Assembly: GCA_035546615.1 (NCBI GenBank)
Contig: DASZWM010000002.1
Location: 32,001-96,000, forward strand
Length of the DNA: 64,000 nt
Source: Minisyncoccota bacterium
GTDB lineage: Bacteria > Patescibacteriota > Minisyncoccia > Phycocordibacterales > SBAW01
Reading direction: 5' to 3'
Both the position numbers and the translations under genes were made by a program. Positions 7,766 to 39,125 of this stretch are shown here, in pieces (the first letter of the stretch is position 1; every line of letters begins with the position of its first letter). Below the pieces are notes generated by a model. The model ran no database searches. It had not been told where the DNA came from and worked only from the letters and a program-made list of their open reading frames with translations.

Positions 7766-7897
7766 AGGAGAAATCGATCAGGCGTTCAAAAATTGTCGTC
7801 ACAATTTTTGCCGCACGACCCTGCCTCGCTCCCAAGTCTGCTGACTTGGGGCCCGCTCCGGCTTGCGATTCCCGACGAGAAGCACCCCGTGCTTCTC
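7766..7897 (-). repeat. structured repeat family F2, copy A (sense on minus strand, 3' of infB-rbfA)
   Basis: Reading the minus strand: 9-bp hairpin with GGG loop; GGAATCGCAAGCCGGAGCGGGCCCC; 8-bp hairpin; GGGAGCGAGGCAGGGTCGTGCGG; AU-rich hairpin with GACG loop; tail CTGATCGATTTC complementary to the 5' GGAATCG. Confidence 0.65.
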
Positions 7898-8052
7898 TCC
7901 ATGGCCGCTTGCGTCGAAGACTCCTTAGAGGCCACGGCGGGAATCGCACCCGCGTATAAAGGATTTGCAGTCCCTTGCCTTACTACTTGGCTACGTGGCC
8001 ATTGCCTAGCGGCAGGCACGTGCCCGCACGCGTAGGTGTAATTACAATACCG

Positions 8053-8370
8053 TTACTGCGAGAGTTCGTCGAGGCGCTGCCGGTTCTTTTCGCCCATATC
8101 TATTTCGAATACGATGTCCGGCGGAAGCGCACCCTTGATGCGCGTCTTGAAGAAATCCTTCATCTCGGTGCGATTGCGATTGGCGAATGACAACGCGTTC
8201 TCCTCCGCAGTCTCAGGCAGTACGGTCATATAAATAGTCGCGTGCTTGTTGTCTTCGGTTAACATGGCGCGGGTAATGGTGATGAGCGAGCCGCGGCCCG
8301 CTTCGCGCACCATGAATTCCGCCGCGACATCGCGCAGTCCTGCCTCAAGCCGTTCGTGTCGGTTGTCCAT
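8053..8370 (-). CDS. rbfA: ribosome-binding factor A
   Basis: About 105 aa, downstream of infB in the conserved infB-rbfA order; RbfA-like sequence (SLITITRAMLTEDNKHATIYMTV). Confidence 0.7.
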   Translation of the reverse strand: MDNRHERLEAGLRDVAAEFMVREAGRGSLITITRAMLTEDNKHATIYMTVLPETAEENALSFANRNRTEMKDFFKTRIKGALPPDIVFEIDMGEKNRQRLDELSQ

Positions 8371-8381
8371 ACGTTTCTATA

Positions 8382-9902
8382 CTATTTGTATACGATCGTA
8401 AACGCCTGGAGAATATCACCGGCAGCCGGTTCGGCCTGCGTTTTTATCTGCGCGCCGAATTCGTTTCCGGCCTCTACCTTTTTAGTAGGCGCCTTCTGCG
8501 TCTGGAGGCTTACGACCGTGCCGCGCCCGAGCTCCATGTCGCGGCGCATGATCTTCACTTCCTCGCCCTGTATCAATTCGCCCTCCTCGACGCGGCCGCC
8601 GAGTATCACTTTGCCTTTGGCCGTGCTGAATACCTTGAGCACTTTGGCGGTGCCGGTGGCTTCCTCAGCACGCTCCTGCGGCACACGCTTCCGGATTTCC
8701 TCCCCAAGCCATTCGGATAATTTGTAGATGATGTCAAAGAGGCCTATCGAGACGCCAAGGCGGTCGGCCAAATCGCGCGCGACGCCTTCGGCCTTCACGT
8801 TGAAGCCGACCACAAGGCCCGGCGGCGTGCCGGAGCCCGCGAGCTTCACGTCCGATTCCGATATGGGGCCCACCGCCTTCGAGACGATGCGCACTTCGAG
8901 GCGCTCGTCTTGCGGCAATTTCTCAAGCTCGTGCATGACCGCGTCGGCGGTGCCGGCTACGTCGGTTTTGATGACGAGCGGGAGTATGATGTGCGTCTTT
9001 TCCTCCTCGCCCTCGACGGTCTGCTGCTGGGCGGCGCGCGCAGGAGGCGCTTTGACCGGCGTCACGGCCGCCTCTTCCGCCTCTTTCTTCGATTTCACCG
9101 CGCGCCACTTGGCGCCCACTGCCGGAAGTATTGAAAAGCCCACGATGCCGATGGCGCTCCCGGCCGAAGCTTCCTTGATAGGCTTGCCGAGGAAATTTTC
9201 CATGATGCGCACGGGCGCGGTCGCGGCTCCGGAGACGATATGCTCGCCGCTGTGGATAGTGCCGTTTTGCACAATAAGTGTAGCGGTATTGCCGCGGCGG
9301 TTGTCGACATGCGCTTCTATGACAAGCCCTTCGGCTGCGGCGTTCGGATCAGCAGTGATTCCTTCAAGCTCGCCGGCAAGCAAAATAAGGTCGAGCAGTT
9401 CAGGAATGCCTTCGCCGGTTTTGCCGGACACGGGGATGTAGGGGACGCTGCCGCCCAGGCCCTCGAGATATATATTGTGTTCAAGCAGAGACATCTTCGC
9501 TTTCTCGACATTGGCGCCTGGCTTGTCGACTTTCGTGAGCGCTACAACGTACGGGATCTTCGTCTCCTCGATAAGTTTCAGCGCTTCGACCGTCTGCGGT
9601 TTGACGCCTTCTTCGGCGGATACAACGAGTATCGCGACGTCGGCGACTTCGAGACCGCGCGAGCGCATCGCCTTGAACGCCTCGTGGCCCGGCGTGTCGA
9701 GGAAGGTAATGCGGTGTTCGCCGGTCGCATTTTTGTGGACGGCTTCGTAGGCCGAAAGATGCTGGGTGATGCCGCCCGCTTCGCCGGCCACGACGTTGGT
9801 TTTGCGGATATAGTCAAGAAGCGTCGACTTGCCGTGGTCGATGTGTCCTACAATAGCAACGATAGGGGGCCGCGCCCCCGCTGTGGGCTTCTGTTCAGGC
9901 AT
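8382..9902 (-). CDS. infB: translation initiation factor IF-2 (short form)
   Basis: G-domain motifs GHIDHGKST, DTPGH, NKVD; C-terminal IF-2 beta-barrel domains. Confidence 0.9.
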   Translation of the reverse strand: MPEQKPTAGARPPIVAIVGHIDHGKSTLLDYIRKTNVVAGEAGGITQHLSAYEAVHKNATGEHRITFLDTPGHEAFKAMRSRGLEVADVAILVVSAEEGVKPQTVEALKLIEETKIPYVVALTKVDKPGANVEKAKMSLLEHNIYLEGLGGSVPYIPVSGKTGEGIPELLDLILLAGELEGITADPNAAAEGLVIEAHVDNRRGNTATLIVQNGTIHSGEHIVSGAATAPVRIMENFLGKPIKEASAGSAIGIVGFSILPAVGAKWRAVKSKKEAEEAAVTPVKAPPARAAQQQTVEGEEEKTHIILPLVIKTDVAGTADAVMHELEKLPQDERLEVRIVSKAVGPISESDVKLAGSGTPPGLVVGFNVKAEGVARDLADRLGVSIGLFDIIYKLSEWLGEEIRKRVPQERAEEATGTAKVLKVFSTAKGKVILGGRVEEGELIQGEEVKIMRRDMELGRGTVVSLQTQKAPTKKVEAGNEFGAQIKTQAEPAAGDILQAFTIVYK

Positions 9903-9936
9903 ACTCAGAGGCAGTATATAGTAGATTAGACAAAGT

Positions 9937-11127
9937 ATGAAGTTATGGCAAAAAAATATCTATGCCGACGCGGCGGCGGCAACGCCGGTGTCCGGCGAGG
10001 TGCGGCGCGAGCTTGTACGCCTGCTGGGGCTTTTTGGCAACCCCGGCGGGCTCCATGCGGAAGCTAACGAGGCCAAACGCGAGCTGGATGCCGCGCGAGA
10101 GCGGACCGCGGCGGCAATCGGCGCGCATGCGGACGAAATAGTCTTCACCTCGGGCGGAACGGAAGCGAACAATCTCGCGGTTTTCGGGGCCCTGCGGCGG
10201 ATGCTGCGCGTGGGGGAGGACGTGCATGCGATAACAAGCGCGATAGAGCACTCGTCGGTGCTGGAGCCCCTGCGCGCGCTTGAAAAAGAGGGTCTGCGGC
10301 TTACGGAGCTTCCGGTCGATATGAGCGGATTCGTGTCGCACAAGGATCTGCGCGAAGCGCTGGAGGCGCGCACGGTCTTTGTTTCCATACAAATGGTCAA
10401 CAGCGAAGTGGGTACCGTGCAGGACATCCGCGAGCTTGCCAAAGAGATCCGGCACCAGCGCAAGGCGCGCGAAGGCGTAGGCGCGCCGCTGTATTTCCAT
10501 ACCGACGCCGCGCAGGCGCCGCTGTGGCTCCCTCTTAATGTCGAAAAGCTCGGCGTCGATCTGCTGACGCTGGACGCGCAAAAAATGCTTGGCCCCAAGG
10601 GCGCGGGGCTTTTGTACGTCCGCCGGGGCACCCGGCTGGAGCCGCATATATGTGGAGGGGGACAGGAGCGCGGATTGCGCAGCGGCACCGAGAACGTCGC
10701 AATGGCCGGGGCATGCGCGCTCGCGCTTTTGCGGGCGCAGGAAGCCGCCGAAGCCCGGGCAGAAAAGATATCACGCGTACAGGACTATCTATTGGAATCG
10801 ATACAGAAACTCCTTCCGGGAGTAATGCTCAACGGCCCAAAGGGGGAAGGCCGGATAGCGAACAACATCAATATTTCCCTGCCGAACCTGAACGGCGACA
10901 TGGCGGTTGTTGCCATGAGCGCGCAAGGCGTGGCCATTTCCACACGCTCGGCGTGCGATACCGACGACGAGGCCCCTTCGCATGTGCTTCAGGGGATCGG
11001 AGTCTTGCCGGAGAGGGCAAAAAATACCGTCCGCATCGCGCTTTTGCCCGACGCGACGCGACGCGACGCCCGATGCATTGCCCGGACGCTTTTTAAAGTC
11101 GCAGCGCGATACGCTAAGACGCCGTAG
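9937..11127 (+). CDS. cysteine desulfurase (class V aminotransferase, IscS/NifS family)
   Basis: HTDAAQA and LDAQKMLGPKGAGLLYV (PLP-lysine region) and the SACD C-terminal segment. Confidence 0.85.
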   Translation: MKLWQKNIYADAAAATPVSGEVRRELVRLLGLFGNPGGLHAEANEAKRELDAARERTAAAIGAHADEIVFTSGGTEANNLAVFGALRRMLRVGEDVHAITSAIEHSSVLEPLRALEKEGLRLTELPVDMSGFVSHKDLREALEARTVFVSIQMVNSEVGTVQDIRELAKEIRHQRKAREGVGAPLYFHTDAAQAPLWLPLNVEKLGVDLLTLDAQKMLGPKGAGLLYVRRGTRLEPHICGGGQERGLRSGTENVAMAGACALALLRAQEAAEARAEKISRVQDYLLESIQKLLPGVMLNGPKGEGRIANNINISLPNLNGDMAVVAMSAQGVAISTRSACDTDDEAPSHVLQGIGVLPERAKNTVRIALLPDATRRDARCIARTLFKVAARYAKTP

Positions 11128-11169
11128 CACTGGCAAATCCGCGCTTAAGTGCTATAATATCCAGTAAGT

Positions 11170-11934
11170 ATGGATCTCGAAAAGCTGACAAAACACCAAA
11201 TCGTCCTCCTAACCCTCCTGGTGTCCTTCGTCACGTCCATCGCTACCGGCATCGTTACCGTTTCCCTTATGGACCAGGCGCCGGCGGGCGTGACTCGGGT
11301 GGTGAATCAGATAGTCGAGCATACGGTAGAGAAGGTCGTGCCGGCCACGCAAAGCGCCGCCGCGATAACGACCACGGAAAAGACGGTTGTGGTGAAGGAC
11401 GACGACCTGGCCGCGCAGTCGATAGCGAAAGTGCAGAAGTCGATAGCGCGCGTGGTGCTTCCGGGCGGAAACGTTCTGGTCTCCCGCGGGATTATTATCG
11501 ATGCCAAGGGGACCGTGCTCGCCGACAAGGCGGCGCTTGCCGCGGCGAACGTTCGGAACTTCGAAGTCCTGCTGCCGGACGGGACCCGCGCTTCGGCCAA
11601 GTGGCGCGACCCGAAGGCAACCTCGACGCTCGCGACGCTGGATGTGAACGTCGGCACCTCGACCGGCTTCGCGCCGGCAACGATAGCCGACTCGAGTAAG
11701 CTTGCCCTGGGCCAATCCGTCATTCGCATAGGCGGAACGGGCGGCGACCAGGTAGGCACCGGTGTTGTTGCCTCGCTTCCCGGGGGCGCGGCGCATTCGG
11801 TGGACGCGAGCATTTCCTCGGCTACTCCCGGCTCGCTGCTTATGACTTTATTCGGCGAAGTCGTCGGCCTCTCGACCACGGCCGCGATACAAGCCGGCGG
11901 CAGCCTTTACACGACACTCTCGCTACCAAGCTAA
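11170..11934 (+). CDS. hypothetical membrane-anchored protein, possibly degenerate trypsin-like fold
   Basis: N-terminal TM; weak resemblance to HtrA-type protease cores but no GDSGG motif. Confidence 0.3.
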   Translation: MDLEKLTKHQIVLLTLLVSFVTSIATGIVTVSLMDQAPAGVTRVVNQIVEHTVEKVVPATQSAAAITTTEKTVVVKDDDLAAQSIAKVQKSIARVVLPGGNVLVSRGIIIDAKGTVLADKAALAAANVRNFEVLLPDGTRASAKWRDPKATSTLATLDVNVGTSTGFAPATIADSSKLALGQSVIRIGGTGGDQVGTGVVASLPGGAAHSVDASISSATPGSLLMTLFGEVVGLSTTAAIQAGGSLYTTLSLPS

Positions 11935-11947
11935 CTACTAAAAAACC

Positions 11948-14647
<2,700 letters not shown>

Positions 14648-14664
14648 AAAGAAAAAGCGGAGCC

Positions 14665-14695
14665 CGTCGCGCATCGAAAAATGCGCGACGGGCTT
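14665..14695. terminator. putative bidirectional terminator
   Basis: Hairpin cccgtcgcgcatcgaaaaatgcgcgacggg between clpB and the convergent GNAT gene. Confidence 0.45.
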
Positions 14696-15053
14696 ATGCG
14701 TGGTGGTATAGGAAATCATTCGTGACGTTCCCGACCCTGGAGAACCTGTTCTTTTCCCAGAATCGCTCGCTTTGGCGCTGGACTTGCACGGCGCGAATGT
14801 CCCGCAATCCGGCCTCCCAGGCTTGTTCGAGCAGTACAGCCAGCGCTTGGCTCCCGAAGCCGCGTCCATATGCCGTATGGGGTATGACGGTCATATTGGT
14901 AATGACCAGGTCGGCCCCGGTCTGCCGGTCGTTGAACACGATGCGGATGTGCGCCCGCACGGCGTTAGGGAAGGGAAAATGCAGGATGTATGCTTCTTCC
15001 GCGCGGTCGTCGGGTTCGATCTCGCAATACTCAGCCAGCTTCTTGATCAGCAT
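14694..15053 (-). CDS. GNAT family N-acetyltransferase
   Basis: Acetyl-CoA binding motif GRGFGSQAL; 119 aa. Confidence 0.7.
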   Translation of the reverse strand: MLIKKLAEYCEIEPDDRAEEAYILHFPFPNAVRAHIRIVFNDRQTGADLVITNMTVIPHTAYGRGFGSQALAVLLEQAWEAGLRDIRAVQVQRQSERFWEKNRFSRVGNVTNDFLYHHA

Positions 15054-15061
15054 GGTCCCTC

Positions 15062-15301
15062 CTAGTGTTTCGGTTGGGTTTTGGCGTAGAGCATGACCGC
15101 AACGGCATATACGGCCGTTAGGGTCGGCGCGCCCGTGGGGTACGTCTTCACCGCATGCTTGCCCTGATTGATCTCCTCAAGCGCCCGCTCGATGTATTCT
15201 CGCGGAACAGGAGTATCTCCCCGGCCTTGCGCCGTATCCTCGACTAGTTTTACCATGTCCGACATCCGCAGATTCTCCTTACTAACGCGTTCTGCCTCCA
15301 A
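15062..15301 (-). CDS. hypothetical protein (79 aa)
   Basis: ORF lying just upstream of the GNAT gene on the same strand. Confidence 0.3.
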   Translation of the reverse strand: MEAERVSKENLRMSDMVKLVEDTAQGRGDTPVPREYIERALEEINQGKHAVKTYPTGAPTLTAVYAVAVMLYAKTQPKH

Positions 15302-15416
15302 AATGCACTATACGGCACCGGAGCGGAATGGGAAAGGCGAGACAGTTTTATAGTGGATAGAATAGTGGACCAAGATAGAAAAAGCTGGCAATAAGCCAGC
15401 AGTTTCTTTTTTAGTG

Positions 15417-15553
15417 CGCCGGGGAGGAATCGGTCAGGAATAAAGTGTTCGCCGTCGCGAATACTTTTTCACGACCCTGCCTCGCTCCCGCATCTGGTGA
15501 TGCGGGGCCCGCTCCGGCTTGCGAATCCTCACGCAAGGTATCCCATACCTTGC
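15417..15553 (-). repeat. structured repeat family F2, copy B (immediately 3' of tRNA-Tyr)
   Basis: Same architecture as copies A and C: hairpin gcaaggtat-CCC-ataccttgc (plus-strand text), core GGATTCGCAAGCCGGAGCGGGCCCC...GGGAGCGAGGCAGGGTCGTG, hairpin with GACG loop, tail CCTGACCGATTCC. Confidence 0.65.
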
Positions 15554-15611
15554 TCCCGCGCAGCACATAACGCAAAAAGTCCTAGCAAGAGCTAAGACTT
15601 TTTGACGTTTG

Positions 15612-15694
15612 TGCGCCGGGGAGGATTCGAACCTCCGTAGCCCGAAGGCGACAGGTTTACAGCCTGTTGTAATTGACCACTCTACCACCGACGC
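15612..15694 (-). tRNA. tRNA-Tyr(GTA)
   Basis: Reverse complement GCGTCGGTGGTAGAGTGGTCAATTACAACAGGCTGTAAACCTGTCGCCTTCGGGCTACGGAGGTTCGAATCCTCCCCGGCGCA; long variable arm. Confidence 0.85.
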
Positions 15695-15735
15695 GTTTCA
15701 ATAGAACGTTCTTACTTTACACTGTTTGCTTTTCC

Positions 15736-15766
15736 TTGTCAGCAGGCGAAAATTGGGTGCTACAAT
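15736..15766 (+). promoter_or_regulatory. putative sigma70-like promoter (TTGTCA...TACAAT); the transcript may be leaderless
   Basis: ttgtca-19nt-tacaat ending 6 nt before the ATG at 15773. Confidence 0.3.
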
Positions 15767-15772
15767 ATTGGC

Positions 15773-16873: not shown

Positions 16874-16876
16874 GAT

Positions 16877-17718: not shown

Positions 17719-17789
17719 GGGCCTATAGTTTAACGGTAGAACGTCGGTCTCCAAAACCGTCGGTCGAGGTTCAATTCCTCGTGGGCCCG
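17719..17789 (+). tRNA. tRNA-Trp(CCA)
   Basis: GGGCCTATAGTTTAACGGTAGAACGTCGGTCTCCAAAACCGTCGGTCGAGGTTCAATTCCTCGTGGGCCCG; anticodon CCA, discriminator G. Confidence 0.8.
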
Positions 17790-17828
17790 CAAAAGACGCA
17801 AAATGCAACCTTCGTTGCTTTTTGTGCG

Positions 17829-17945
17829 TTGCGGGAGACGGAGCGATGCCGCGCAATGGCGCGGCCGCGAGTCGGGGTCGCGAAAATTTTTTGCGACGGC
17901 AAAAAGTTATTTGTGACCGCTCAAAAATTTTTTTGCGAGCCGCAT
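17829..17945 (+). repeat. structured repeat family F1, copy 2 (3' of tRNA-Trp; its 3' part overlaps the miaA stop region)
   Basis: Hairpin gccgcgc-aatg-gcgcggc, GAGTCGGGGTCGCGAAA, hairpin aattttttgc-GACG-gcaaaaagtt, TATTTGTGACC, gcgagccgc after a T-run. Confidence 0.6.
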
Positions 17946-20390: not shown

Positions 20391-20557
20391 GCTTTTTATG
20401 GCGGGGGGAATCGGCTACCACGTAGCCAGGTACTTTTCGATCTCGATGACTCGATAACGAAAAGTCTTTCGATTCTCCCATGGAAGCAAATCAATTTGCT
20501 TCCTCCCCGGACTCCAGACAGAAAAAGAGCCGGGCGGTAAGCCTGGCCTGTTTTCTG

Positions 20558-30535: not shown

Positions 30536-30542
30536 TCTGGGC

Positions 30543-31070
30543 CTAGTAGGCCCCATACTGCGGATTGACCGGCGTTGCGGCCTGCCGTCCATAATGCGCG
30601 TGATAGAGGCAATACTGATTCCTTTTTCCTCCCGTATCCGCGCCGCAGTACAGCGCGGGGCTCGTTTCCGTCTGGTCGCGCACGATAGTGTGACACATCC
30701 CTTCCTCAACCTGCAGGAGCGTCACGTTGATGCTCTTCGGTTGCGGGATTTCCATGACGGCACGGGGCAGCGCAGCCTGCCGCGCGGCTTCCGGATGCAG
30801 CTTGGGCGGCTCGCGCCTTGCTTTTATCCGTAACCGCATGAGCGCGGCATTGTTTGTTGAGCCTGTTCGCGGTTTGCGCGGCCGGGCCTGGCTGGGTGCG
30901 GGCTTCGGCCGTCCGGAAAGGTTGAGACGGTGGATTTTTCCAATGACGGCATTCGCCGTAACTCCGCCCAGCTGGGCGGCTATCTGGCTTTTGGAAAATC
31001 CCTCGCTCCAGAGCTTTTTGAGCAATTCAATGCGCTCGTCCGTCCAGCCATGATTCTTGGTAGAACCCAT
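30543..31070 (-). CDS. GcrA-family cell-cycle regulator-like protein
   Basis: N-terminus WTDERIELLKKLWSEGFSKSQIAAQLGGVTANAVIGKIHRLNLSGR and C-terminal Cys/His block (MCHTIV...YCGADTGGKRNQYCLYHAHY) match the GcrA (PF07750) pattern; 175 aa. Confidence 0.6.
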   Translation of the reverse strand: MGSTKNHGWTDERIELLKKLWSEGFSKSQIAAQLGGVTANAVIGKIHRLNLSGRPKPAPSQARPRKPRTGSTNNAALMRLRIKARREPPKLHPEAARQAALPRAVMEIPQPKSINVTLLQVEEGMCHTIVRDQTETSPALYCGADTGGKRNQYCLYHAHYGRQAATPVNPQYGAY

Positions 31071-31123
31071 AGGCTTTTACTCCTTGTACTGATAGTGGAA
31101 CAAATGTCCTGTCCTTACTATAA

Positions 31124-31984
31124 CTATGTCCGTACTATCTTGCCAAGACGCTCTTCTACGAGCCCGCGGATCTGCAGCGATGAAAGCGCGATGTTCGCTT
31201 CCTGAGCGGAAAGCCCCGCGCGCTCAATAAGCTCGTCTTTTTCGAGTGCTTCGGCCAATGCCTCGAGTATTTTCGCTTCGGCAGGCGTCAGATCGGACGG
31301 GAAGGAGGCTTCCGCAGCATCTTCGACTTTCAGTCCGAGCGCTTCAAGAATATCTTCGCTGTTGCGAACGAGCGTTGCGCCTTCGCGAATCAGCCGGTTG
31401 ACGCCCGCGCCGCTCTCGCGCCCCAGCTCGTGCGGCACGGCGAGCACTTCGCGGTTGTAGTCAAGCGCGAGCCGCGCGGTAATAAGCGTGCCGGACTTTT
31501 CTCCCGCTTCTATTATGAGCGTGGCAAGCGCCATGCCGGCCCCGATGCGGTTTCGCTTGGCGAAATCGAACAGCTGGGGCCGGTAGGGGCCGGGATTCTC
31601 GCTTACGAGCGCGCCGCCCTTCTCAAGTATCCGCTGCGCCAGCCCGCGGTTGCTTGCGGGATATATAGAAGAGTCATCGCATGAGGAGGGGAGCACCGCT
31701 ACGGTTGCCAGCCCGGCATCGAGCGCCGCCTTGTGCGCTTCGGCGTCTATGCCTAAAGCGAGGCCCGAGACTATCGCGACCGGATACCGCGCTAGCCCCG
31801 CGATAAGCGCTTGGCACATACGCCTTCCATATATAGACGTAGCGCGCGAGCCCACGACGCACAGGAGCTTGTACTCGGGCGGGGGAAGTTCGCCGCGTAG
31901 GTACAGCATTTTCGGCTTGTCCGGAATTTCCCTCAAAAGGTCGGAAAATCCGTCAGGCGGCAGTTGTCGGATAGGGAAAGCCAT
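31124..31984 (-). CDS. dprA: DNA processing protein DprA (SMF family)
   Basis: Rossmann-like GSR...VSGLALGID and C-terminal winged-helix region. Confidence 0.85.
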   Translation of the reverse strand: MAFPIRQLPPDGFSDLLREIPDKPKMLYLRGELPPPEYKLLCVVGSRATSIYGRRMCQALIAGLARYPVAIVSGLALGIDAEAHKAALDAGLATVAVLPSSCDDSSIYPASNRGLAQRILEKGGALVSENPGPYRPQLFDFAKRNRIGAGMALATLIIEAGEKSGTLITARLALDYNREVLAVPHELGRESGAGVNRLIREGATLVRNSEDILEALGLKVEDAAEASFPSDLTPAEAKILEALAEALEKDELIERAGLSAQEANIALSSLQIRGLVEERLGKIVRT

Positions 31985-32009
31985 TGTATTCTATGGATAT
32001 TCTGAACAT

Positions 32010-33281
32010 ATGTTAGATATCACGTTCATCCGCGAGAATCTAGAGCTCGTGAAGGCCGGCGCCAAGAAGAAGCATATCGAGGTCGACCTCGACCGGCTCA
32101 TGTCCGTGGACGAAAAGCGCCGCGCGCTCCTGGTGGAGATAGAGACCATGCGCGCCAAGCAGAACGAGGTGTCCGACATGGTGGTCAAGGCGAGCCCCGA
32201 GGAAAAAGAAAAGGCTATCGGCGAAATGCGGGTGCTCAAGGAGACGCTTCAGGGCAAAGAGAAGGAAATGGAGGAGGTGATGCATGAATGGCAGCTCCTT
32301 ATGGTGGCGGTGCCGAACATTCCGGATTTGTCAGTGCCCGACGGCGACTCCGACGCGGACAATAAAGAGGTGAAGGTGTGGGGCGGAAAGCCGCAGTTCG
32401 CTTTTACCCCGAAGAGCCACGTCGAATTGATGCAGGACCTCGAGATGGCGGACTTCGAGCGCGGCACCAAGGTCGCCGGATTCCGCGGCTACTTCCTCAA
32501 GGGCGACGGGGCGCTCTTATCTTTCGCTATCTGGCGCTACGCGCAGGATTTTTTCCTGAAAAAGGATTTTACGCCGATGATAGTGCCGAGTTTGGTAAAG
32601 CGCGTCGCATTTTTGGGCAGCGGGTACCTGCCCCAGGGCGAGGACGACCTGTATAAGACGCAGGACGGCGATTTTTTGGCCGGCACCGCGGAAGTGGCGA
32701 CGATGGGGTACTACATGAACGAAGTATTGCCGAAAGAAAAACTGCCGATGAAATTCCTTTCCTTCTCGCCGTGCTTCAGGCGCGAGGCGGGCGCGCACGG
32801 CAAGGACGTCAAAGGCCTTATCCGGGTACACGAATTCTTCAAATGGGAGCAGGTCATCGTGTGCGAGGGCACGCATGAGGAGTCGGTCAAATGGCACGAA
32901 TGGGTGAATCGCAACACGGAAGAGTTCATCGAGTCGCTTGAGATCCCGTACCACACGGTGCTCAACTGTGGCGGTGACCTCGGGCTGGGCCAGGTAAAAA
33001 AGTATGACATCGAGCTGTGGGTGCCGGGCGAGAATACGTATCGCGAGATAAGCTCGGCCTCGTACTTCCATGACTTCCAGACCCGCCGTCTTAACATCCG
33101 CTATCGCGACGAGAACGGAAAGATGCAGTACTCGCATTCGCTTAATTCCACCGCCATTCCGACTCCGCGTATCCTCGTGTCTTTGATAGAGAATTACCAG
33201 CAGGAAGACGGCTCCATCCTCATCCCGAAAGCCCTGCAGCAGTACATGGGCAAGGAAAAAATAGAAAAAGCGAAAGCGTAA
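32010..33281 (+). CDS. serS: seryl-tRNA synthetase
   Basis: N-terminal coiled coil and class II core motifs (FRREAGAHGKD, GLGQ); 423 aa from the ATG at 32010. The track ORF from 31650 is an upstream extension overlapping dprA. Confidence 0.9.
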   Translation: MLDITFIRENLELVKAGAKKKHIEVDLDRLMSVDEKRRALLVEIETMRAKQNEVSDMVVKASPEEKEKAIGEMRVLKETLQGKEKEMEEVMHEWQLLMVAVPNIPDLSVPDGDSDADNKEVKVWGGKPQFAFTPKSHVELMQDLEMADFERGTKVAGFRGYFLKGDGALLSFAIWRYAQDFFLKKDFTPMIVPSLVKRVAFLGSGYLPQGEDDLYKTQDGDFLAGTAEVATMGYYMNEVLPKEKLPMKFLSFSPCFRREAGAHGKDVKGLIRVHEFFKWEQVIVCEGTHEESVKWHEWVNRNTEEFIESLEIPYHTVLNCGGDLGLGQVKKYDIELWVPGENTYREISSASYFHDFQTRRLNIRYRDENGKMQYSHSLNSTAIPTPRILVSLIENYQQEDGSILIPKALQQYMGKEKIEKAKA

Positions 33282-33283
33282 GT

Positions 33284-34123
33284 ATGGCACGCGTGCAACT
33301 GCCGGTCTCCAAGCTCAAGGCGCGCAAGCGCCGCAGGCGCGTGCTTGCGCTGGTGTTCGCGCTTGCGGGCGCCCTCGCGCTTGCGGCAGGCGCGATAGCG
33401 CTTACATGGGCGCCGTTCCTGCGCATCCAGAAGCTTGAGGTAGCAGGAGTGTCGTCGGTAAATAAAGAGCTGGTGGAGGAGCAGATCCGCAAAAGCCTCA
33501 GCGGCGCGTATTGGGGCGTATTTCCGCGCGACAATATCTTTTTGTATTCCAAAGCCGAGATGCGCGCGCGGCTGCTTTCGCAGTTTCCGGTGTTCGCAAG
33601 CGCGAGCCTTTCTTCCGAGGGCTTCGACGGCCTGCGCGTAGACCTGGTCGAGCGCAAGCCGGCGGCGCTTTGGTGCGGCGAGGGGCCGGAGCTTTCAGGC
33701 TCATGCCTTACGCTCGACGAAAGCGGCGCGGCGTATACCCTCGCGGCGGATTTCTCCGGCTCGGTATATGCGCGGTACACCGGAGCGCTTCCGCAAGGGC
33801 CTTTGCCGCGGCAGTTCCTGGCGCCCGAGCAGTTCCGCGGCCTTGCAGCCTTCGTGAGCGAGCTGTCGGGCAAGCTTTCAAGCACGTCGATAAGCGTCGT
33901 CGCTGTCGGCGGGGACGGCGACGTGCAGGTGGTGTGCGAGAACGGCTTCAGGCTGGTGTTCTCGCTGGATGATAACGGCGCCGATGTGCTTGAGCGCTTC
34001 GCGCTGGCGCTGACCGCGGGGCCGTTCGCAACCCACAAGCTTTCGGACTTTGAATATCTCGACCTTCGCTTTGGCGACAAGCTGTACTACAAGCTGAAAG
34101 GGGAGGAAAAAGCGGAAGAATAA
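33284..34123 (+). CDS. FtsQ/DivIB-like cell division protein (POTRA domain)
   Basis: Basic N-terminus, one TM, then IQKLEVAGVSSVNKELVEEQI typical of FtsQ POTRA. Confidence 0.45.
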   Translation: MARVQLPVSKLKARKRRRRVLALVFALAGALALAAGAIALTWAPFLRIQKLEVAGVSSVNKELVEEQIRKSLSGAYWGVFPRDNIFLYSKAEMRARLLSQFPVFASASLSSEGFDGLRVDLVERKPAALWCGEGPELSGSCLTLDESGAAYTLAADFSGSVYARYTGALPQGPLPRQFLAPEQFRGLAAFVSELSGKLSSTSISVVAVGGDGDVQVVCENGFRLVFSLDDNGADVLERFALALTAGPFATHKLSDFEYLDLRFGDKLYYKLKGEEKAEE

Positions 34124-34126
34124 AAG

Positions 34127-34148
34127 AGGGCGCGCCGTACGGCGCGCC
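34127..34148. terminator. putative bidirectional terminator
   Basis: gggcgcgccgtacggcgcgccc. Confidence 0.45.
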
Positions 34149-34159
34149 CCGCTTCGTTT

Positions 34160-34405
34160 TCATCGCCCGGTGAGATTTCCCCACCAGTCGTCTATTCGCT
34201 TCAGCAGCCGCCGGAGTTTGCCCGGCTCCTTCTGCTTTTGCTGCATGGGCTCTTCGGGATCCTCGGGTTCAGGCTTCATGACCTCAAGGCAGCTTGCCTC
34301 CCAATCATAGTGAATGCCCTGCTTTCCGGGCGGGATTTGCTTTAAAGCCCGTTCTGCCGGGGAATCACCCGGGTTGATCGGACCCAGTCCTATTCTGGCT
34401 GTCAC
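34160..34405 (-). CDS. hypothetical protein (81 aa)
   Basis: ORF only. Confidence 0.3.
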   Translation of the reverse strand: MTARIGLGPINPGDSPAERALKQIPPGKQGIHYDWEASCLEVMKPEPEDPEEPMQQKQKEPGKLRRLLKRIDDWWGNLTGR

Positions 34406-34466
34406 GTCGATTGCTCCTCGTACTGGTTCAGTTGACTATTACACCGCCGCTCGGTAGCCTTGTCAA

Positions 34467-35444
34467 ATGAAGTCAAAAGAAAGCTTCTGGAACGGCCTTC
34501 CCAAGCCCTTGTTCGTGCTCGCGCCTTTGGCGAACGTCACCGACGCGGCGTTCCGGCGCATAATCGCCAAGTACAGCAAGCCGGCGGGGCCGCACGTGTT
34601 CTGGACTGAATTCGTCTCGGCGGACGGGCTTGTCCTCGCCAATGAGGAAGGGAAGGCAAAGCTCATGCGCGACCTTATATATACGGAAGCGGAGCGGCCC
34701 ATAGTGGCGCAGTTCTTCACCTCGACTCCGGCGCATATGGAGAAAGCCGCCGCGCTTGCGGCCGAGCTTGGCTTCGACGGCATCGATATAAACATGGGAT
34801 GCCCCGACAAAAGCATTGAGAAGCAGGGTGCGGGGGCGAAGCTCATTCAGACCCCTGAAGTTGCGCAAGAACTCATTGCCGCGGCAAAGCGCGGGGCGCC
34901 GAATCTGCCCGTTTCGGTCAAAACGCGGCTCGGCTACAACAAGGATATTCTTGAAGAATGGCTGCCTAAGCTGCTTGCCGCTGAACCGGCTGCCCTGACC
35001 TTGCACGCGCGCACGCGCAAGGAGATGTCGGCCGTGCCCGCGCATTGGGACAGAGTGAAGCGCGCGGTTGAGATCCGCAACGAGCTCGGAAGCAAAACTC
35101 TCATCATCGGCAACGGCGATGCGATGGACCTCGAAGATGCTAAAAAGAAGGCGGAAGAGTCGGGAGCTGACGGTGTTATGCTCGGCCGCGCCATTTTCGG
35201 CAAGCCGTGGCTCTTCAGCGGGGCCGAGGCACCCGCGCTTACGGAGCGGCTGCGCATCGCGGTGGAGCACAGCAAGCTCTTTGAGGAGCTTTTGGGCGAT
35301 ATCAAGAATTTTGCCATCATGAAAAAGCACTTCAAAGCATATGCCGAAGGGTTTCCGGGCGCGAAGGAGCTTCGCATGGAGCTGATGGAGACGAAAAGCG
35401 CCGCGGAGATAGAAAAGGTGGTTGAATACTTTCTCGCATCCTGA
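34467..35444 (+). CDS. dus: tRNA-dihydrouridine synthase
   Basis: APLANVTD...GIDINMGCP...SVKTRLG TIM-barrel Dus motifs. Confidence 0.85.
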   Translation: MKSKESFWNGLPKPLFVLAPLANVTDAAFRRIIAKYSKPAGPHVFWTEFVSADGLVLANEEGKAKLMRDLIYTEAERPIVAQFFTSTPAHMEKAAALAAELGFDGIDINMGCPDKSIEKQGAGAKLIQTPEVAQELIAAAKRGAPNLPVSVKTRLGYNKDILEEWLPKLLAAEPAALTLHARTRKEMSAVPAHWDRVKRAVEIRNELGSKTLIIGNGDAMDLEDAKKKAEESGADGVMLGRAIFGKPWLFSGAEAPALTERLRIAVEHSKLFEELLGDIKNFAIMKKHFKAYAEGFPGAKELRMELMETKSAAEIEKVVEYFLAS

Positions 35445-35479
35445 TATAAAAACTGTAGGCAGTAGGCAGGGAGGCTTCA

Positions 35480-35794
35480 GTGAAGCAGGGACAGAAAAAG
35501 CCAATCACTACGGGTAGTCTGCTCCGGGCTGCCCGGGAGCTAAAGGCGGAGGGCCAAAAGGTCACGTATTCGAGTTTGGGAAAAAAGACTGGCCAACACG
35601 GCCATTCGATCAAACGTTTTTTAGATCGAGTGCCGTGGATAATTGCTGAACTCGAAATAGTACGGGTAGCAAAGGGATATGCTCCCCAAGAACCTGACCG
35701 GCTCAGACGGCTTATCTTGACGTTTCCTGAGGATGGAGCGTTCGGCTGGCTCGCCCAAAGGATCGGGCCTCGTATCTTTCAGGAAAGCTTGTGA
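35480..35794 (+). CDS. hypothetical protein (GTG start)
   Basis: 104-aa basic protein; region slightly lower in GC than surroundings. Confidence 0.3.
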   Translation: MKQGQKKPITTGSLLRAARELKAEGQKVTYSSLGKKTGQHGHSIKRFLDRVPWIIAELEIVRVAKGYAPQEPDRLRRLILTFPEDGAFGWLAQRIGPRIFQESL

Positions 35795-35807
35795 GTCCGC
35801 CCGCAGC

Positions 35808-35836
35808 CACGACCGATGGTAGGAATACTATCGGTC
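35808..35836 (+). terminator. putative terminator hairpin
   Basis: acgaccgat-ggtaggaatact-atcggtcgt. Confidence 0.35.
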
Positions 35837-35874
35837 GTTTTCGTTCCTCTTAATTAGTAGCGTATACTAAGGCC

Positions 35875-36186
35875 ATGAACGAGCTGGTGCATGCCGATAT
35901 CTTCTTTTTTATAACGTCCGTTGCTGTCATAGCACTGTCGGCCGCCATGCTCGTCCTCCTCTTGTATCTTATTCCGGCCGCACGCGATCTGCGGTCGATT
36001 ACGGCCAAAGTGCGGAAGGCCGGCGACGAGATGGAGAAGGATTTCGAGGACCTTCGCGCGAATCTGCGGGCGGAAGGTAGCAAGGGAAAGATGCTGGTAG
36101 ATATCGTGCTCGGCTGGGCGGGCCACGTACTCAAGGCGCCCGCCGCGCGTCGGGCAAAGAAACAGCCGCCTTCATCCGAAGTTTAG
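35875..36186 (+). CDS. small membrane protein (DUF948-like topology)
   Basis: One N-terminal TM then a charged coiled region. Confidence 0.35.
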   Translation: MNELVHADIFFFITSVAVIALSAAMLVLLLYLIPAARDLRSITAKVRKAGDEMEKDFEDLRANLRAEGSKGKMLVDIVLGWAGHVLKAPAARRAKKQPPSSEV

Positions 36187-36243
36187 GTTAGGGCTGTATT
36201 GTGAAGAAGAGCGGAAATATTCATTAACCTAATTACTGTTACT

Positions 36244-36651
36244 ATGGCAAAGAAAAATTCTGGAATGGGCATGTCAGTGGGCGTCGGGGCGGGGCTCGCT
36301 GCGGCTGCTACGGCTGGAGCGGCGGCGTACTGGCTCTACGGCTCCAAGCACTCGGCACAGCACCGCAAATTGGCCAAGAGCTGGATGCTCAAGGCGCGCG
36401 CCGAGGTAATGGAGGCGATAGAGAAGATACAGGACATAGACAAGGAGCAGTACATGGCTGCGGTCAACGGCGTGCTCAAGAACTACGCGGGCGCAAGCTC
36501 AACCGAGATGGCGGCCATGATGCGCGATTTCAAGACCGCATGGACCCACATGCAGGCCGCGCAGAAGAGCGGCAGCAAGGGCGCAAAGAGCGCCAAGCGC
36601 ACCGGCAAGAAGATGGTGAAAAGCGCTCGTAAAATGGTCCGCGGAAAGTAA
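36244..36651 (+). CDS. hypothetical Ala/Lys-rich protein
   Basis: N-terminal Gly/Ala hydrophobic segment, basic C-terminus. Confidence 0.35.
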   Translation: MAKKNSGMGMSVGVGAGLAAAATAGAAAYWLYGSKHSAQHRKLAKSWMLKARAEVMEAIEKIQDIDKEQYMAAVNGVLKNYAGASSTEMAAMMRDFKTAWTHMQAAQKSGSKGAKSAKRTGKKMVKSARKMVRGK

Positions 36652-36701
36652 TACTTTAATCAGCAAGCAAAAGGTCGTCGAGGAAGGTTCCCGGCGGCCT
36701 T

Positions 36702-37778
36702 TTGTTATATACTGGCTTCATGGCAAAGGGCTCCAAGGAAGAAATCGCTGCGCCTATGGCGCTGTATCGCAAATACCGGCCTTCCGGCTTTGCGGAAGTG
36801 CGCGGGCAGGAAGAGGTCGTTTCGGTCCTTGAGGCCGCTATAAAGAAGAACGAAATCGCGCACGCCTACCTTTTCTCCGGCGGGCGCGGCACCGGCAAGA
36901 CCTCGATGGCGCGCATTTTGGCCCGCGCGGTCGGGACCAGCGAGCAGGATATCTACGAGATGGACGCCGCATCCAACCGCGGTATCGACGAGATACGCGA
37001 GCTTCGCGAAGGTGTCTCGACGATGCCGTTCGATTCCAAATACAAGTTCTATATCATCGACGAGGCTCACGCGCTCACCAAAGACGCCTGGGGAGCGTTT
37101 CTCAAGACCCTTGAGGAGCCGCCGGCGCACGCGATATTCGTGCTTGCGACGACCGAGCTCGACCGCGTGCCCGAAACCATCCAGTCGCGCTGCCAGGTGT
37201 TCCGTTTCAAGAAGCCCAGCCACGAAACGCTTAAGAAGCTCGTCCTCGATGTAGCCAAGAAAGAAGGCGTCGCGCTTGCGCCCGCAGGTGCGGAGCTTGT
37301 CGCTTTGGTAGGGGAAGGCTCGTTCCGCGACACACTCGGCACGCTCCAGAAGGCGCTTACGATTTCGGAAGACAAGAAACTGACGGAAGAGGAGATAGCG
37401 AAGGTAATTGGTGCGCCATCGGCCGGGCTGGTAAATAATTTTATCTCGGCGCTTGCCCAGAAAAATATAGACGACGCGCTTGCCGCCTTCTCGGCCGCGG
37501 TAAAAAACGGCTCGGAGCCGCAGATATTCATCTTGCTCGCCGTTGCGAAAGTGCGCGGGATATTGCTCCTGCGCTTTGCCCCCAAAATGCGCGGAGAGCT
37601 TGCCGAGCAGTTCGGCGAGGACGATATGAAGCTGCTTGAGTCGCTCGCAAAGGGCGAGGGCGCAAGCATTAACTCCCAAACCCTGGCAGAATTCCTGACC
37701 GCGCTCATTGAAACTCCGCGCGCTCCGCTTCCGACTATTCCGCTGGAGCTTGCTCTGTACCGCCTCTTCCAACAATAG
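36702..37778 (+). CDS. dnaX: DNA polymerase III subunit gamma/tau (short form)
   Basis: YRKYRPSGF, GGRGTGKTS, IIDEAH, SRCQVF box motifs. True start may be the internal Met at about 36720 or 36756. Confidence 0.85.
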   Translation: MLYTGFMAKGSKEEIAAPMALYRKYRPSGFAEVRGQEEVVSVLEAAIKKNEIAHAYLFSGGRGTGKTSMARILARAVGTSEQDIYEMDAASNRGIDEIRELREGVSTMPFDSKYKFYIIDEAHALTKDAWGAFLKTLEEPPAHAIFVLATTELDRVPETIQSRCQVFRFKKPSHETLKKLVLDVAKKEGVALAPAGAELVALVGEGSFRDTLGTLQKALTISEDKKLTEEEIAKVIGAPSAGLVNNFISALAQKNIDDALAAFSAAVKNGSEPQIFILLAVAKVRGILLLRFAPKMRGELAEQFGEDDMKLLESLAKGEGASINSQTLAEFLTALIETPRAPLPTIPLELALYRLFQQ

Positions 37779-37780
37779 AT

Positions 37781-38446
37781 ATGGAATTTATACAGTCATC
37801 GAATCCGAGCGAGGGCGCCCAGGCTATGGCGCAGAAGATAGTTGAATCTTTGCGGAAGGGAAAAGTGCTGTGGCTGATATGCGGCGGCTCGAACGTGCCG
37901 CTTTCGGCGGAGGCCATGGATGCCGTACGCGCCGCAGTTTCTGCGGATGAATTGCGGAACCTAACGGTCGGCATGACGGATGAGCGGTACGGGCCGCTTG
38001 GGCACGCCGACTCCAACTGGAAGCAGCTTGAGGATGTTGGGTTCAATATAGAAGGAGTCACGGCTATTCCGGTACTTACGGGAAAGCCGCTTGAAGAGAC
38101 TGTTTCGGAATATGCTCAGAAGCTCGAAGATGCGCTGCAAGAAGAACCGCTTGTTATCGCGCAATTCGGCATCGGCGCGGACGGGCATATCGCGGGCATG
38201 CTTCCGCACAGCCCCGCGGTCTCAAGCACGGACACTATATACGCATACGAAGCCGCGCCATTCACGCGCATTACAATAACCCAGCCGGTATTCAAGAAAA
38301 TATCCGTCGCGTATGCGATAGTATTCGGCGAGTCCAAAAAAGCCGCCATCGACCGCCTCAAGAACGAGGACCTTCCGGTTGAGGAAATGCCCTGCCAGTT
38401 GCTTAAGCAAATCCCCGAAGCGTATTTTTATACCGACCAGCTTTAA
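37781..38446 (+). CDS. 6-phosphogluconolactonase-like protein (NagB/Pgl family)
   Basis: LICGGS and GIGADGHIAGMLP motifs of 6PGL/glucosamine-6-P deaminase-fold enzymes. Confidence 0.65.
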   Translation: MEFIQSSNPSEGAQAMAQKIVESLRKGKVLWLICGGSNVPLSAEAMDAVRAAVSADELRNLTVGMTDERYGPLGHADSNWKQLEDVGFNIEGVTAIPVLTGKPLEETVSEYAQKLEDALQEEPLVIAQFGIGADGHIAGMLPHSPAVSSTDTIYAYEAAPFTRITITQPVFKKISVAYAIVFGESKKAAIDRLKNEDLPVEEMPCQLLKQIPEAYFYTDQL

Positions 38447-38485
38447 GAAAAACATCCTTACAAACTTGAGAATGTAAGGATGTTT
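38447..38485. terminator. bidirectional hairpin built from the ACATCCTTACA / TGTAAGGATGT inverted repeat
   Basis: aaaacatccttaca-aacttgagaa-tgtaaggatgtttt between convergent genes. Confidence 0.4.
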
Positions 38486-38791
38486 TTAGAGATTCTGGAA
38501 GGATTTTAGGAAGCGGACGAATATCTTACCGTAGGGCGAAAGCCGGTGCTCCACGAACTTGCCGCGATACTTTTTTGCGATAAGGCCGGCCACATAGAGC
38601 CGCCTGGTGTGCTCGCCGATGGTCTTCTCGTTCGCATTAAGGGTCGCCGCAATAGTATCGAGCGTAACGCCCTCGTGCCGGGCGATAAGAAGCAGTATCT
38701 CGATGCGGTAATGATTTGCCATGCCCTTGAGATGGCGTTCCATCTGCTTTGCCGTCTTCGTATTTTTCATGCGGGAGAGTATACATGACAC
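38486..38791 (-). CDS. ArsR/SmtB family transcriptional regulator
   Basis: HYRIEILLLIARHEGVTLDTIAATL wHTH signature. Confidence 0.7.
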   Translation of the reverse strand: MSCILSRMKNTKTAKQMERHLKGMANHYRIEILLLIARHEGVTLDTIAATLNANEKTIGEHTRRLYVAGLIAKKYRGKFVEHRLSPYGKIFVRFLKSFQNL

Positions 38792-38797
38792 CCCAAC

Positions 38798-38819
38798 ATT
38801 CTCAAGTTTGTAAGGATGT
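38798..38819. promoter_or_regulatory. putative operator half of a 22-bp inverted repeat flanking the ArsR gene
   Basis: attctcaagtttgtaaggatgt is the exact reverse complement of 38452..38473. Confidence 0.35.
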
Positions 38820-38890
38820 GTGGAAAGGGAAGAGGCGGGGCTGGAAGCGTTTTGTGAAGGAGCCTTAAATTTGCTATCCTCAGATTGTAT

Positions 38891-38961
38891 TGCCCGATCG
38901 TCTAATGGTAGGACAGAGGCCTTTGAAGCCTTTAATTGGGGTTCGAATCCCTGTCGGGCAG
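38891..38961 (+). tRNA. tRNA-Gln(TTG)
   Basis: TGCCCGATCGTCTAATGGTAGGACAGAGGCCTTTGAAGCCTTTAATTGGGGTTCGAATCCCTGTCGGGCAG; U1-A72 pair as in bacterial tRNA-Gln. Confidence 0.8.
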
Positions 38962-38992
38962 CAAATGTAGCGAAGCGTAATTTGCGCCCGAA

Positions 38993-39125
38993 GGAAGCAA
39001 TGGGATTGCTTCCGGCAGGGATTCGAAAGCCGGAGCGGGACCCGCATCAGCAGATGCGGGAGCGAGGCAGGGTCGTGCGGCTAAAGTTGCGACGGCAACT
39101 TTAGAACGCCTGACCGAATCCCTAA
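38993..39125 (+). repeat. structured repeat family F2, copy C (3' of tRNA-Gln)
   Basis: ggaagcaat-GGG-attgcttcc; GGATTCGAAAGCCGGAGCGGGACCC; gcatc-AGCA-gatgc hairpin; GGGAGCGAGGCAGGGTCGTGCGGC; aaagttgc-GACG-gcaacttt; tail CCTGACCGAATCC pairs with the 5' GGATTCG. Confidence 0.65.

Follow-up and report, generated by a model that had tools for sequence, protein, structure and literature searches.

Elements behind tRNA genes in the window

The 64-kb stretch of Patescibacteria DNA analysed here (the window) carries several copies of a structured, non-coding element, placed at the 3' ends of tRNA genes. Three copies, A (7766–7897, minus strand), B (15417–15553, minus) and C (38993–39125, plus), had been reported in an initial annotation and are confirmed, the 20-mer GGGAGCGAGGCAGGGTCGTG having exactly three exact matches in the window against none expected by chance. 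tRNA genes were located with ARAGORN and Rfam, and each of the three copies lies 30–80 nt downstream of a tRNA gene on the same strand: copy A behind tRNA-Cys (7928–8000, minus), copy B behind tRNA-Tyr (15611–15694, minus) and copy C behind tRNA-Gln (38891–38962, plus). The reported sites at tRNA-Tyr and tRNA-Gln therefore stand, whereas the third, given as rbfA, was mis-annotated: the gene order upstream of tRNA-Cys is infB, then rbfA (8053–8370, minus), and tRNA-Cys separates rbfA from copy A, so that all three copies follow tRNAs. The covariance-model search suggested in the same annotation was run and gave further copies in the window and in public data. The model, R1, was made from 15 cores; applied to the window with filters off, it detects A, B and C and also the divergent copies D (tRNA-Trp) and E (tRNA-Lys). 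Element F, behind tRNA-Leu-CAA, is added by its outer architecture, which is as in A–E, its core being different. Instead of only three copies, elements are thus borne by six of the eight window tRNAs (A–E and F). The full length is 170–250 nt when the spacer and hairpin, the tRNA-antisense arm and the repeat of the tRNA 3' end are included, which is longer than the 110–135 nt first given, and extracts between identical anchors measure exactly 168 nt in 14 of 18 cases (3 window copies and 15 genome-locus copies).

In most copies, the core is followed on its 3' side by a repeat of the 3' end of the upstream tRNA and preceded on its 5' side by the reverse complement of the same end, broken by a small hairpin. 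Below, T is the tRNA 3' end, T' its reverse complement (T'a and T'b on either side of the small hairpin), DR2 the repeat behind the core, and P1, P2 and P3 the helices of the fold; scores are those of R1.

7928–7946, minus: copy A (type 1), left T, last 19 nt of tRNA-Cys (C56 to 3' end), CGATTCCCGCCGTGGCCTC, matched by the arms
7899–7927, minus: copy A, spacer (7907–7927) and arm T'a GGCCATGG (7899–7906), antisense to the acceptor 3' strand
7877–7897, minus: copy A, 9-bp hairpin with GGG triloop
7866–7874, minus: copy A, P1 5' strand (T'b) CGGGAATCG, exact complement of tRNA-Cys CGATTCCCG
7776–7865, minus: copy A, conserved core, P2 7823–7865 and P3 7776–7821; 114 bits
7760–7776, minus: copy A, DR2 CGATTTCTCCTGGCCTC, repeating the tRNA-Cys 3' end in degenerate form
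15611–15629, minus: copy B (type 1), left T, last 19 nt of tRNA-Tyr, CGAATCCTCCCCGGCGCAC
15553–15610, minus: copy B, spacer with a terminator-like hairpin between A and T runs (15574–15603); arm T'a GTGCTGCGCGGGAG (15553–15566)
15522–15553, minus: copy B, GGG-triloop hairpin (15533–15553) and P1 5' strand GAGGATTCG (15522–15530)
15432–15521, minus: copy B, conserved core, P2 15479–15521 and P3 15432–15477; 110 bits
15414–15432, minus: copy B, DR2 CGATTCCTCCCCGGCGCAC, 18/19 identical to the tRNA-Tyr 3' end, then a second hairpin with A and T runs on its flanks
38944–38962, plus: copy C (type 1), left T, last 19 nt of tRNA-Gln
38963–39025, plus: copy C, spacer; T'a TTTGCGCCCGA (38981–38991); GGG-triloop hairpin (38993–39013); P1 5' strand AGGGATTCG (39017–39025)
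39026–39115, plus: copy C, conserved core, P2 39026–39068 and P3 39070–39115; 125 bits
39115–39123, plus: copy C, DR2 shortened to CGAATCCCT; a low-GC island begins right behind
About 17796–17944, plus: copy D (type 2), after tRNA-Trp 17719–17790; hairpin 17796–17829, arm TGCGGG 17830–17835, P2 17836–17873, P3 17874–17918; 48 bits
17934–17944, plus: end of copy D, truncated start of a further unit, TGCGAGCCGCA
About 7609–7753, plus: copy E (type 2), after tRNA-Lys 7535–7608; hairpin 7619–7642, arm CTGTGCG 7648–7654, P2 7655–7692, P3 7693–7737, repeat CACAAAG 7737–7743; 46 bits
7744–7753, plus: end of copy E, truncated start of the next unit, TGCGAGACGC
20398–20557, minus: element F (type 3), after tRNA-Leu-CAA 20558–20644; terminator-like hairpin 20519–20557, anti-acceptor arm 20502–20516, hairpin 20483–20502, P1 5' strand GGGAGAATCG 20470–20479, unrelated smaller core 20414–20469, DR2 20398–20413

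Elements E (plus) and A (minus) are convergent, and their 3' ends (7753 and 7760) lie about 6 nt apart (window 7737–7776). For element F, a weak relative was seen at another locus (L097, 3234–3301). Most window tRNA genes are without a full encoded CCA and show the discriminator, CA and then divergence (..GCGCAC before A, ..CCCGCA before AAAG; 7601–7610, 15611–15615, 17783–17792); CCA is encoded by tRNA-Leu-CAA and by some tRNAs of related loci.

A conserved fold with arms derived from the tRNA

The fold that RNAalifold gives for the three copies is a three-way junction preceded by a 9-bp hairpin with a GGG triloop. It consists of the closing stem P1, of P2 with a tandem G-A internal loop and of P3 with an AU-rich covarying stem capped by GCGACGGC, and changes on both sides were found in 19 of its 48 pairs. 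The shared blocks first described as single-stranded are largely paired, in P2 and the base of P3. At E<1e-6, R1 detects at least 111 copies on 93 sources (the window and public loci); the percentages and counts given for the 111 copies are among the matches listed. In their alignment (A5, 109 distinct sequences), standard pairing occupies 93.0% of cells, compared to 64.8% in shuffles, with none of 500 shuffles reaching the observed value; it drops to 33–43% when partners are slid, and double changes occur at 34 of 38 pairs. The same covariation was seen in the ungapped MAFFT alignment A4. Selection on secondary structure over sequence, as initially proposed, is therefore upheld. P1 is paired in 81.6% and the other helices in 91–99%. 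The core contains invariant junction nucleotides and the tandem G-A motif, and 102 of the 109 sequences retain one particular G-U pair beside the arm. The excess of G-U over A-C combinations (219:52 overall, 73:16 without P1 and the invariant pair) favours the assignment of the fold to the tRNA-sense strand.

Comparison of the whole window with Rfam 15 at gathering thresholds returned the eight tRNAs only, and the region of copy C at E<=10 gave noise of 6–14 bits; among the families without a match are hammerhead, twister, HDV, group I intron, tmRNA, RNase P, IS605-orfB, HEARO and STAXI. The original failure to recognise a known RNA family thus holds at permissive thresholds too, and no description of the element was found in the literature searched. 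It is well supported that the element represents a new family of RNA or single-stranded-DNA structure, absent from Rfam. The spacer of copy C contains GCGAAGC (38970–38976), and other type 1 spacers have C-GNA-G-like motifs (CGAAG, CGTAG, GCAAG). The oligonucleotide d(GCGAAGC) is a very stable DNA mini-hairpin, and its occurrence in copy C faintly hints at a single-stranded DNA form.

The match of the arms to the host tRNA was quantified for 62 tRNA-linked copies. The longest exact direct match has a mean length of 10.1 nt (maximum 27), compared to 5.0 for shuffled tRNA ends, and the longest inverted match a mean of 9.1 nt (maximum 19), compared to 5.1. In type 1 (A, B and C), P1 is formed by the complement of the T-loop 3' half and T-stem 3' strand, paired with the downstream copy, and the repeat begins, as a rule, 19 nt upstream of the tRNA end (range 19–21 nt), that is, at C56; in the two tmRNA copies it starts at -19 and -20. 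In type 2 (D and E), CTT(T)GTG(C) is the arm, and its partners are the final few nucleotides of the tRNA together with the first ones of the element, (G)CAC followed by AAAG, so that the complementarity crosses the junction between mature end and trailer; the unit ends with ..GACCAC. The length of the direct repeat ranges between about 4 and about 40 nt.

The P1 5' strand forms 662 of 830 Watson-Crick pairs with the functional tRNA as against 540 of 830 with DR2, the tRNA being the better partner in 47 copies, an equal one in 27 and a worse one in 9. DR2 therefore behaves as a decaying relic, while the left T and the antisense arm are kept matched, as would be expected were T' and the left T both parts of the unit. 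The GGAATCG/CGATTTC of copy A, previously read as compensating changes, reflects this decay of DR2, buffered by G-U pairs. Behind a tRNA-Ala gene (L001), the arm GGACCTT is the perfect complement of the U70-containing strand, and the tRNA 5' strand reads GGGCCTT, with the G3-U70 pair. An origin of the arms from a tRNA pseudogene or tandem duplicate was ruled out by this case and by the presence of GATCG, the T-loop complement, instead of TTCGA; the arm is a copied complement rather than a tRNA duplicate.

In many copies, a terminator-like hairpin bordered by A and T runs separates the tRNA from the core, and no U run stands behind the core itself; a strict terminator scan of 7100–8100 gave no match. 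When tRNA-Tyr and element B were folded together, the 3' part of the tRNA paired with T', a model in which the tRNA would unfold. This may be the reason why many copies keep a terminator-like hairpin before T'.

Distribution, empty sites and spread

An exact scan with the 20-mer, using one genome per species, yielded 15 loci. Twelve are labelled as Patescibacteria (Adlerbacteria, Kaiserbacteria, Parcubacteria and 'Saccharibacteria' metagenome-assembled genomes (MAGs)), an unclassified 'uncultured bacterium' MAG accounts for two more, and the fifteenth is labelled Syntrophales. The last (L013) was rejected as a chance hit, with no element around it and no score from the model. Viral contigs scanned with the invariant 20-mer gave 0 matches, and a looser, core-derived pattern retrieved at least 120 loci from metagenome contigs. 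All copies with an organism label belong to Patescibacteria. In 84 of the 111 copies, a tRNA or tmRNA gene ends on the same strand within 255 nt upstream, the gap having a median of 44.5 nt and being at most 90 nt in 77 copies, which sustains the fixed position and orientation behind stable-RNA genes noted at the outset. The host genes comprise 19 tRNA isotypes plus tmRNA (33 anticodon species counting tmRNA). Among the remaining copies, 9 are cut by contig ends and 18 are without such a gene upstream; one of these 18 is the second unit of a tandem array, and another (L011) follows a tRNA with a group I intron. A given subtype tends to keep the same tRNA across genomes (Cys, Gln, Gly and Tyr for type 1; Lys and Trp for type 2).

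The intron at L011 (1701–1928, minus; Rfam 56.9 bits) lies in a tRNA missed by ARAGORN, and the element stands at the 3' end of that tRNA. Published tRNA group I introns of Patescibacteria occupy the anticodon-loop position 35/36 (PMC13011429), and are by this location unrelated to the element; the possibility of a group I intron remnant was rejected, as there is no Rfam hit within the element. Three near-identical copies (L003 353–400, L007 4190–4244 and L009 5039–5090) are not tRNA-linked, their upstream sequence is without an Rfam match, and they carry an extra hairpin, GTGCTTGCC-TGC-GGCAAGACAC, inside the 3' strand of P1.

Homologues of RbfA marked five syntenic loci with the same tRNA set. 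At the closest (L136, 84% RbfA identity), elements follow tRNA-Cys, tRNA-Lys (two in tandem), tRNA-Trp and tRNA-Tyr, and at L139 (60%) a single element follows tRNA-Lys. At L137, L138 and L140 (75%, 70% and 43%), R1 has no match at the same tRNA-Cys, Lys, Trp and/or Tyr. There, tRNA-Leu lies 0–22 nt behind tRNA-Cys, and in L137 and L140 the genes for tRNA-Cys, Leu and Lys form a compact cluster. The empty sites do not have the type 2 'trailer' AAAGACAG, which is therefore part of the element. In L136, the repeat is exact over 18 nt, and the bases behind it start (AAG...) as does the trailer at the L137 empty site, a likeness which lends slight support to the idea that DR2 may be the displaced original tRNA end.

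Recent spread between tRNA genes is seen in cores which are nearly identical at different targets. The core behind tRNA-Tyr in L136 is 97% identical to that behind tRNA-Ile in L012, with differing arms and left parts; the core of copy C (Gln) and that of L008 (Glu) share 95.6%, and the hairpin of copy B is identical to the L008 hairpin. Between L110 (Lys) and L122 (Ile), the cores are 94% identical, and identity is comparable over the remainder of the unit, which runs from just behind ..GCGCAC to ..GACCAC. Tandem re-insertion has produced arrays at L123 (172-nt unit), L126 and L084, and copies D and E end with the truncated start of another unit, TGCGAGMC. Arms fitting the local sequence were also found in copies outside tRNA genes, at L076 (after the terminator of an open reading frame (ORF)) and at L036, where the repeat of about 40 nt includes the terminator. 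Conversely, different cores stand in the same outer frame, as in element F and in a further variant in L028. At L045 (5540–5860, plus), an element lies between two diverged zinc ribbon-like coding repeats (..ERCSNKSCQNHNPHK.. / ..ERCSNKGCPNHNPHK..), so that either the repeats are a long target duplication or the element has inserted between repeats of natural origin.

Origin of the element and its likeness to known systems

The favoured reading, to which we give about an even chance, is that the copies represent a non-autonomous mobile element without a gene of its own, specialised on tRNA/tmRNA 3' ends in Patescibacteria. The mobile unit would consist of a copy of the tRNA 3' end from T-loop C56 (T_el), a spacer or hairpin, often terminator-like, then T', the reverse complement of T broken by the small hairpin, and the core, the three-way junction with P2 and P3. 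It is proposed that type 1 inserts in the T-loop, between positions 55 and 56, and type 2 just before the terminal CAC; that the element's own T becomes the working tRNA 3' end; and that the old end is shifted downstream, giving the decaying direct repeat DR2. In a single-stranded form, RNA or top-strand DNA, the T':T stem would imitate the acceptor/T minihelix of the target, and the three-way junction could be the handle for an enzyme supplied in trans, e.g., a recombinase or nuclease. Such a unit would explain the direct repeat, the tracking of the left T by T', the 'trailer' moving with the element and the patchy distribution; it would explain the arrays too, as every unit restores the target that it uses. 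Folded single-strand sites, as in integron attC/attI and CTX-phi attP(+)/dif, produce the order T – X – T' – core – T; by analogy, a single-stranded intermediate is favoured. This intermediate, the unit boundaries and the enzyme are what we infer. A further-reaching version, which we regard as doubtful, would be a new class of gene-less mobile element with target choice by base pairing, whose arm is a rewritable guide copied from the occupied tRNA gene, whose junction is a scaffold for a trans-acting enzyme or is itself catalytic, and whose own tRNA 3' end is swapped in.

A number of points weigh against mobility. It is read from sequence comparison rather than from circle junctions or excision, and it leaves the rewriting of both arms for a new tRNA without explanation. 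The conservation of the core is far above what a selfish repeat needs, and the tendency of a subtype to keep its tRNA across genomes could stem from long-standing vertical inheritance together with a host function. The 111-copy alignment A5 was fitted to the covariance model, and the loci were fetched by a core-derived pattern, which biases the distribution. The minimum free energies of the two strands (-74.8 and -76.1 kcal/mol) do not separate them; as folding energy is uninformative on the strand, the G-U/A-C ratio was used in its place. A Pfam scan of the 50 window ORFs revealed no integrase, transposase, HUH protein or reverse transcriptase. The elements contain no ORF, no ORF recurs beside them across about 140 loci, and all-against-all clustering of 1,809 ORFs of the fetched loci returned syntenic housekeeping genes only, e.g., IF-2, ClpB and RbfA. 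TnpA (Y1) or RAYT was not seen in the 64 kb or in flanks of up to 10 kb around the fetched copies. With no such enzyme in the window or among recurrent neighbours, the helper enzyme is hypothetical.

The main rival, rather unlikely in our judgement, is a host cis-acting RNA module for tRNA/tmRNA 3'-end biogenesis, in which the arm would pair over the precursor 3' end and trailer and the junction would recruit or position RNase III, RNase Z or an exonuclease, or serve as a terminator or protective cap. It would fit the strict position and orientation behind tRNA/tmRNA genes, the strong covariation, an arm exactly complementary to the functional tRNA end, the type 2 complementarity across the mature-end/trailer junction and the presence of an element at six of eight window tRNAs. 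However, close relatives are without the element at the same tRNAs, which excludes a general requirement; the A/T-run-flanked hairpin between tRNA and core in many copies would stop co-transcription, and T' pairing would unfold the tRNA. Direct repeat, arrays, non-tRNA copies and differing cores in the same frame are left unexplained by such a module. A dedicated host cis-element or small RNA, as put forward in the initial annotation, is therefore unsupported in that form: the tRNA-copied arms, the empty sites, the cores 94–97% identical to one another behind different tRNAs in different genomes, the arrays and the non-tRNA copies are better fitted by an insertion element. An independent family of small tRNA-like RNAs using the tRNA maturation pathway is an improbable explanation. 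T'a/DR2 and T'b/DR2 would mimic an acceptor/T minihelix, and RNase P and RNase Z would free a stable RNA of about 170 nt with a functional three-way junction. The outer stem does copy the acceptor and T stems, with the small hairpin where the D and anticodon arms leave, 6 of 7 acceptor-like pairs are kept in copies A and B, and the fold is on the sense strand; but DR2 decays in many copies, its acceptor part is gone in copy C, P1 is the least paired helix, type 2 is without a minihelix mimic and an own promoter is not evident.

The copies could also be scars of ordinary integrase-mediated integrative elements (attL/attR remnants or cis-mobilisable elements), the core being no more than the conserved att-proximal end of a deleted larger element. 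Classical tRNA integration sites have a direct repeat starting in the T-loop, as seen here, and the low-GC island stands right behind copy C. Nevertheless, we consider scars very improbable, given the uniform 168-nt extracts, the compensatory changes preserving the fold across 111 copies, an antisense arm that would have no role, the lack of an integrase among the 50 window ORFs and recurrent neighbours, and a 20-mer without a match in viral contigs. Least probable of all is a catalytic RNA, self-cleaving or self-ligating, with the arm as substrate guide, acting at the tRNA 3' region and moving at the RNA level. The invariant junction nucleotides, the tandem G-A, the invariant G-U next to the arm and the guide-like arms would suit it; against it, Rfam gives no ribozyme match even at E<=10, movement through RNA requires a reverse transcriptase, of which there was no sign, the element departs from the hammerhead core pattern, and no conserved pseudoknot was noticed, although no systematic search for one was made. 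A hammerhead-like reading of CUGA..GAAA was rejected on alignment A4, which has CUGACCGA, with one extra nucleotide, instead of CUGANGA, A-G for U-H and no A15.1-U16.1 pair.

Among known systems, small non-autonomous or structure-based recombination elements are nearest in kind to the mobile element favoured here. Integron attC and CTX-phi attP(+) resemble it in the post-integration order (target copy, cargo, inverted copy, structured spacer of about 60–140 nt, target copy), in a strand-specific fold with structure conserved over sequence, in an extrahelical stem interruption and in tandem arrays. Unlike them, the element is without a cargo gene, IntI/Xer consensus or detected enzyme; its arms (CGAATCC.. 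/ CACAAAG, not GTTRRRY or dif) are 8–27 nt long and differ per target, and its centre is a conserved three-way junction instead of a variable loop. The copies are not attC sites with RYYYAAC/GTTRRRY motifs in a cassette array with intI: the arms are tRNA-derived (CGAATCCCT, CACAAAG), and no cassette ORFs or intI were seen. Prophages, integrative and conjugative elements and islands targeting tRNA/tmRNA genes share the insertion at the tRNA 3' end, the identity block from the T-loop, the restored 3' end and the displaced old end, and type 1 shows the direct repeat typical of such elements (starting usually at -19, range 19–21, and reaching up to 27 nt). They differ in that the present element has 170–250 nt, no integrase, an arm antisense to the att repeat and a covarying core. 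The IS200/IS605 PATEs and REP/REPIN sequences are likewise non-coding, hairpin-rich, strand-specific and without terminal inverted repeats of their own, and type 2, whose unit ends with ..GACCAC and would insert after the fixed short motif ..GCAC, would recreate its target and so form arrays in a similar manner; in contrast to them, direct repeats of 19–27 nt go with a long guide-like arm in type 1, a three-way junction takes the place of simple hairpins, and neither TnpA/RAYT (window and flanks) nor an Rfam IS605/HEARO match was found.

The primer-binding site of retroviruses and long terminal repeat (LTR) retrotransposons is also exactly complementary, over 18–19 nt, to the 3' end of a host tRNA, into the T-loop. 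The complementarity of the element, however, follows the gene into the trailer instead of the added CCA and begins at C56, not 59, and LTRs or a reverse transcriptase are not present. Miniature inverted-repeat transposable elements (MITEs), Correia, RPE and ERIC sequences are similarly short, multi-copy, non-coding, foldable and patchy among relatives, but the element has no fixed terminal inverted repeats or short fixed target-site duplication, a strict target class of tRNA 3' ends, and covariation over phylum-level diversity; unlike in MITEs, its inverted arms change with the target and its direct repeat is of varying length (about 4 to about 40 nt). Target-copied arms, replacement of the tRNA 3' end and a conserved three-way junction are not found in any of the families compared.

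The genomes of Patescibacteria are tiny, yet six of the eight window tRNAs carry an insert which supplies, or at least mirrors, the working 3' end. If mobile, the element would rank with the smallest known site-specific elements, and its arms, rewritten for over 30 tRNA species, would imply a templated or guide-based targeting principle, possibly re-usable; if it were a host module, tRNA 3'-end biogenesis would have a new layer in this major lineage, which is uncultured. The copies are also traps for annotation, as pseudo tRNA 3' ends and false attachment sites.

The low-GC island (39130–42215, GC 0.38–0.46 compared to about 0.58 for the window) starts directly after the truncated repeat of copy C. 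Its ORFs (39186–40859, 40862–41419 and 41791–42174) have no Pfam match, and a search for a repeat of the tRNA-Gln 3' end at the far end of the island gave nothing. Homing endonuclease-like ORFs, with faint LAGLIDADG_3 and weak HNH matches, lie behind the rbfA tRNA cluster at L138 (10684–11334) and at the P0034 locus; L138 is without an R1-model element at these tRNA sites. Elsewhere in the window, a short DnaA-like protein of 297 aa is encoded at 53856–54749 (minus), with matches to the N- and C-terminal DnaA domains and no AAA+ domain hit, and an ORF for a GcrA-family protein lies at 30543–31070 (minus).

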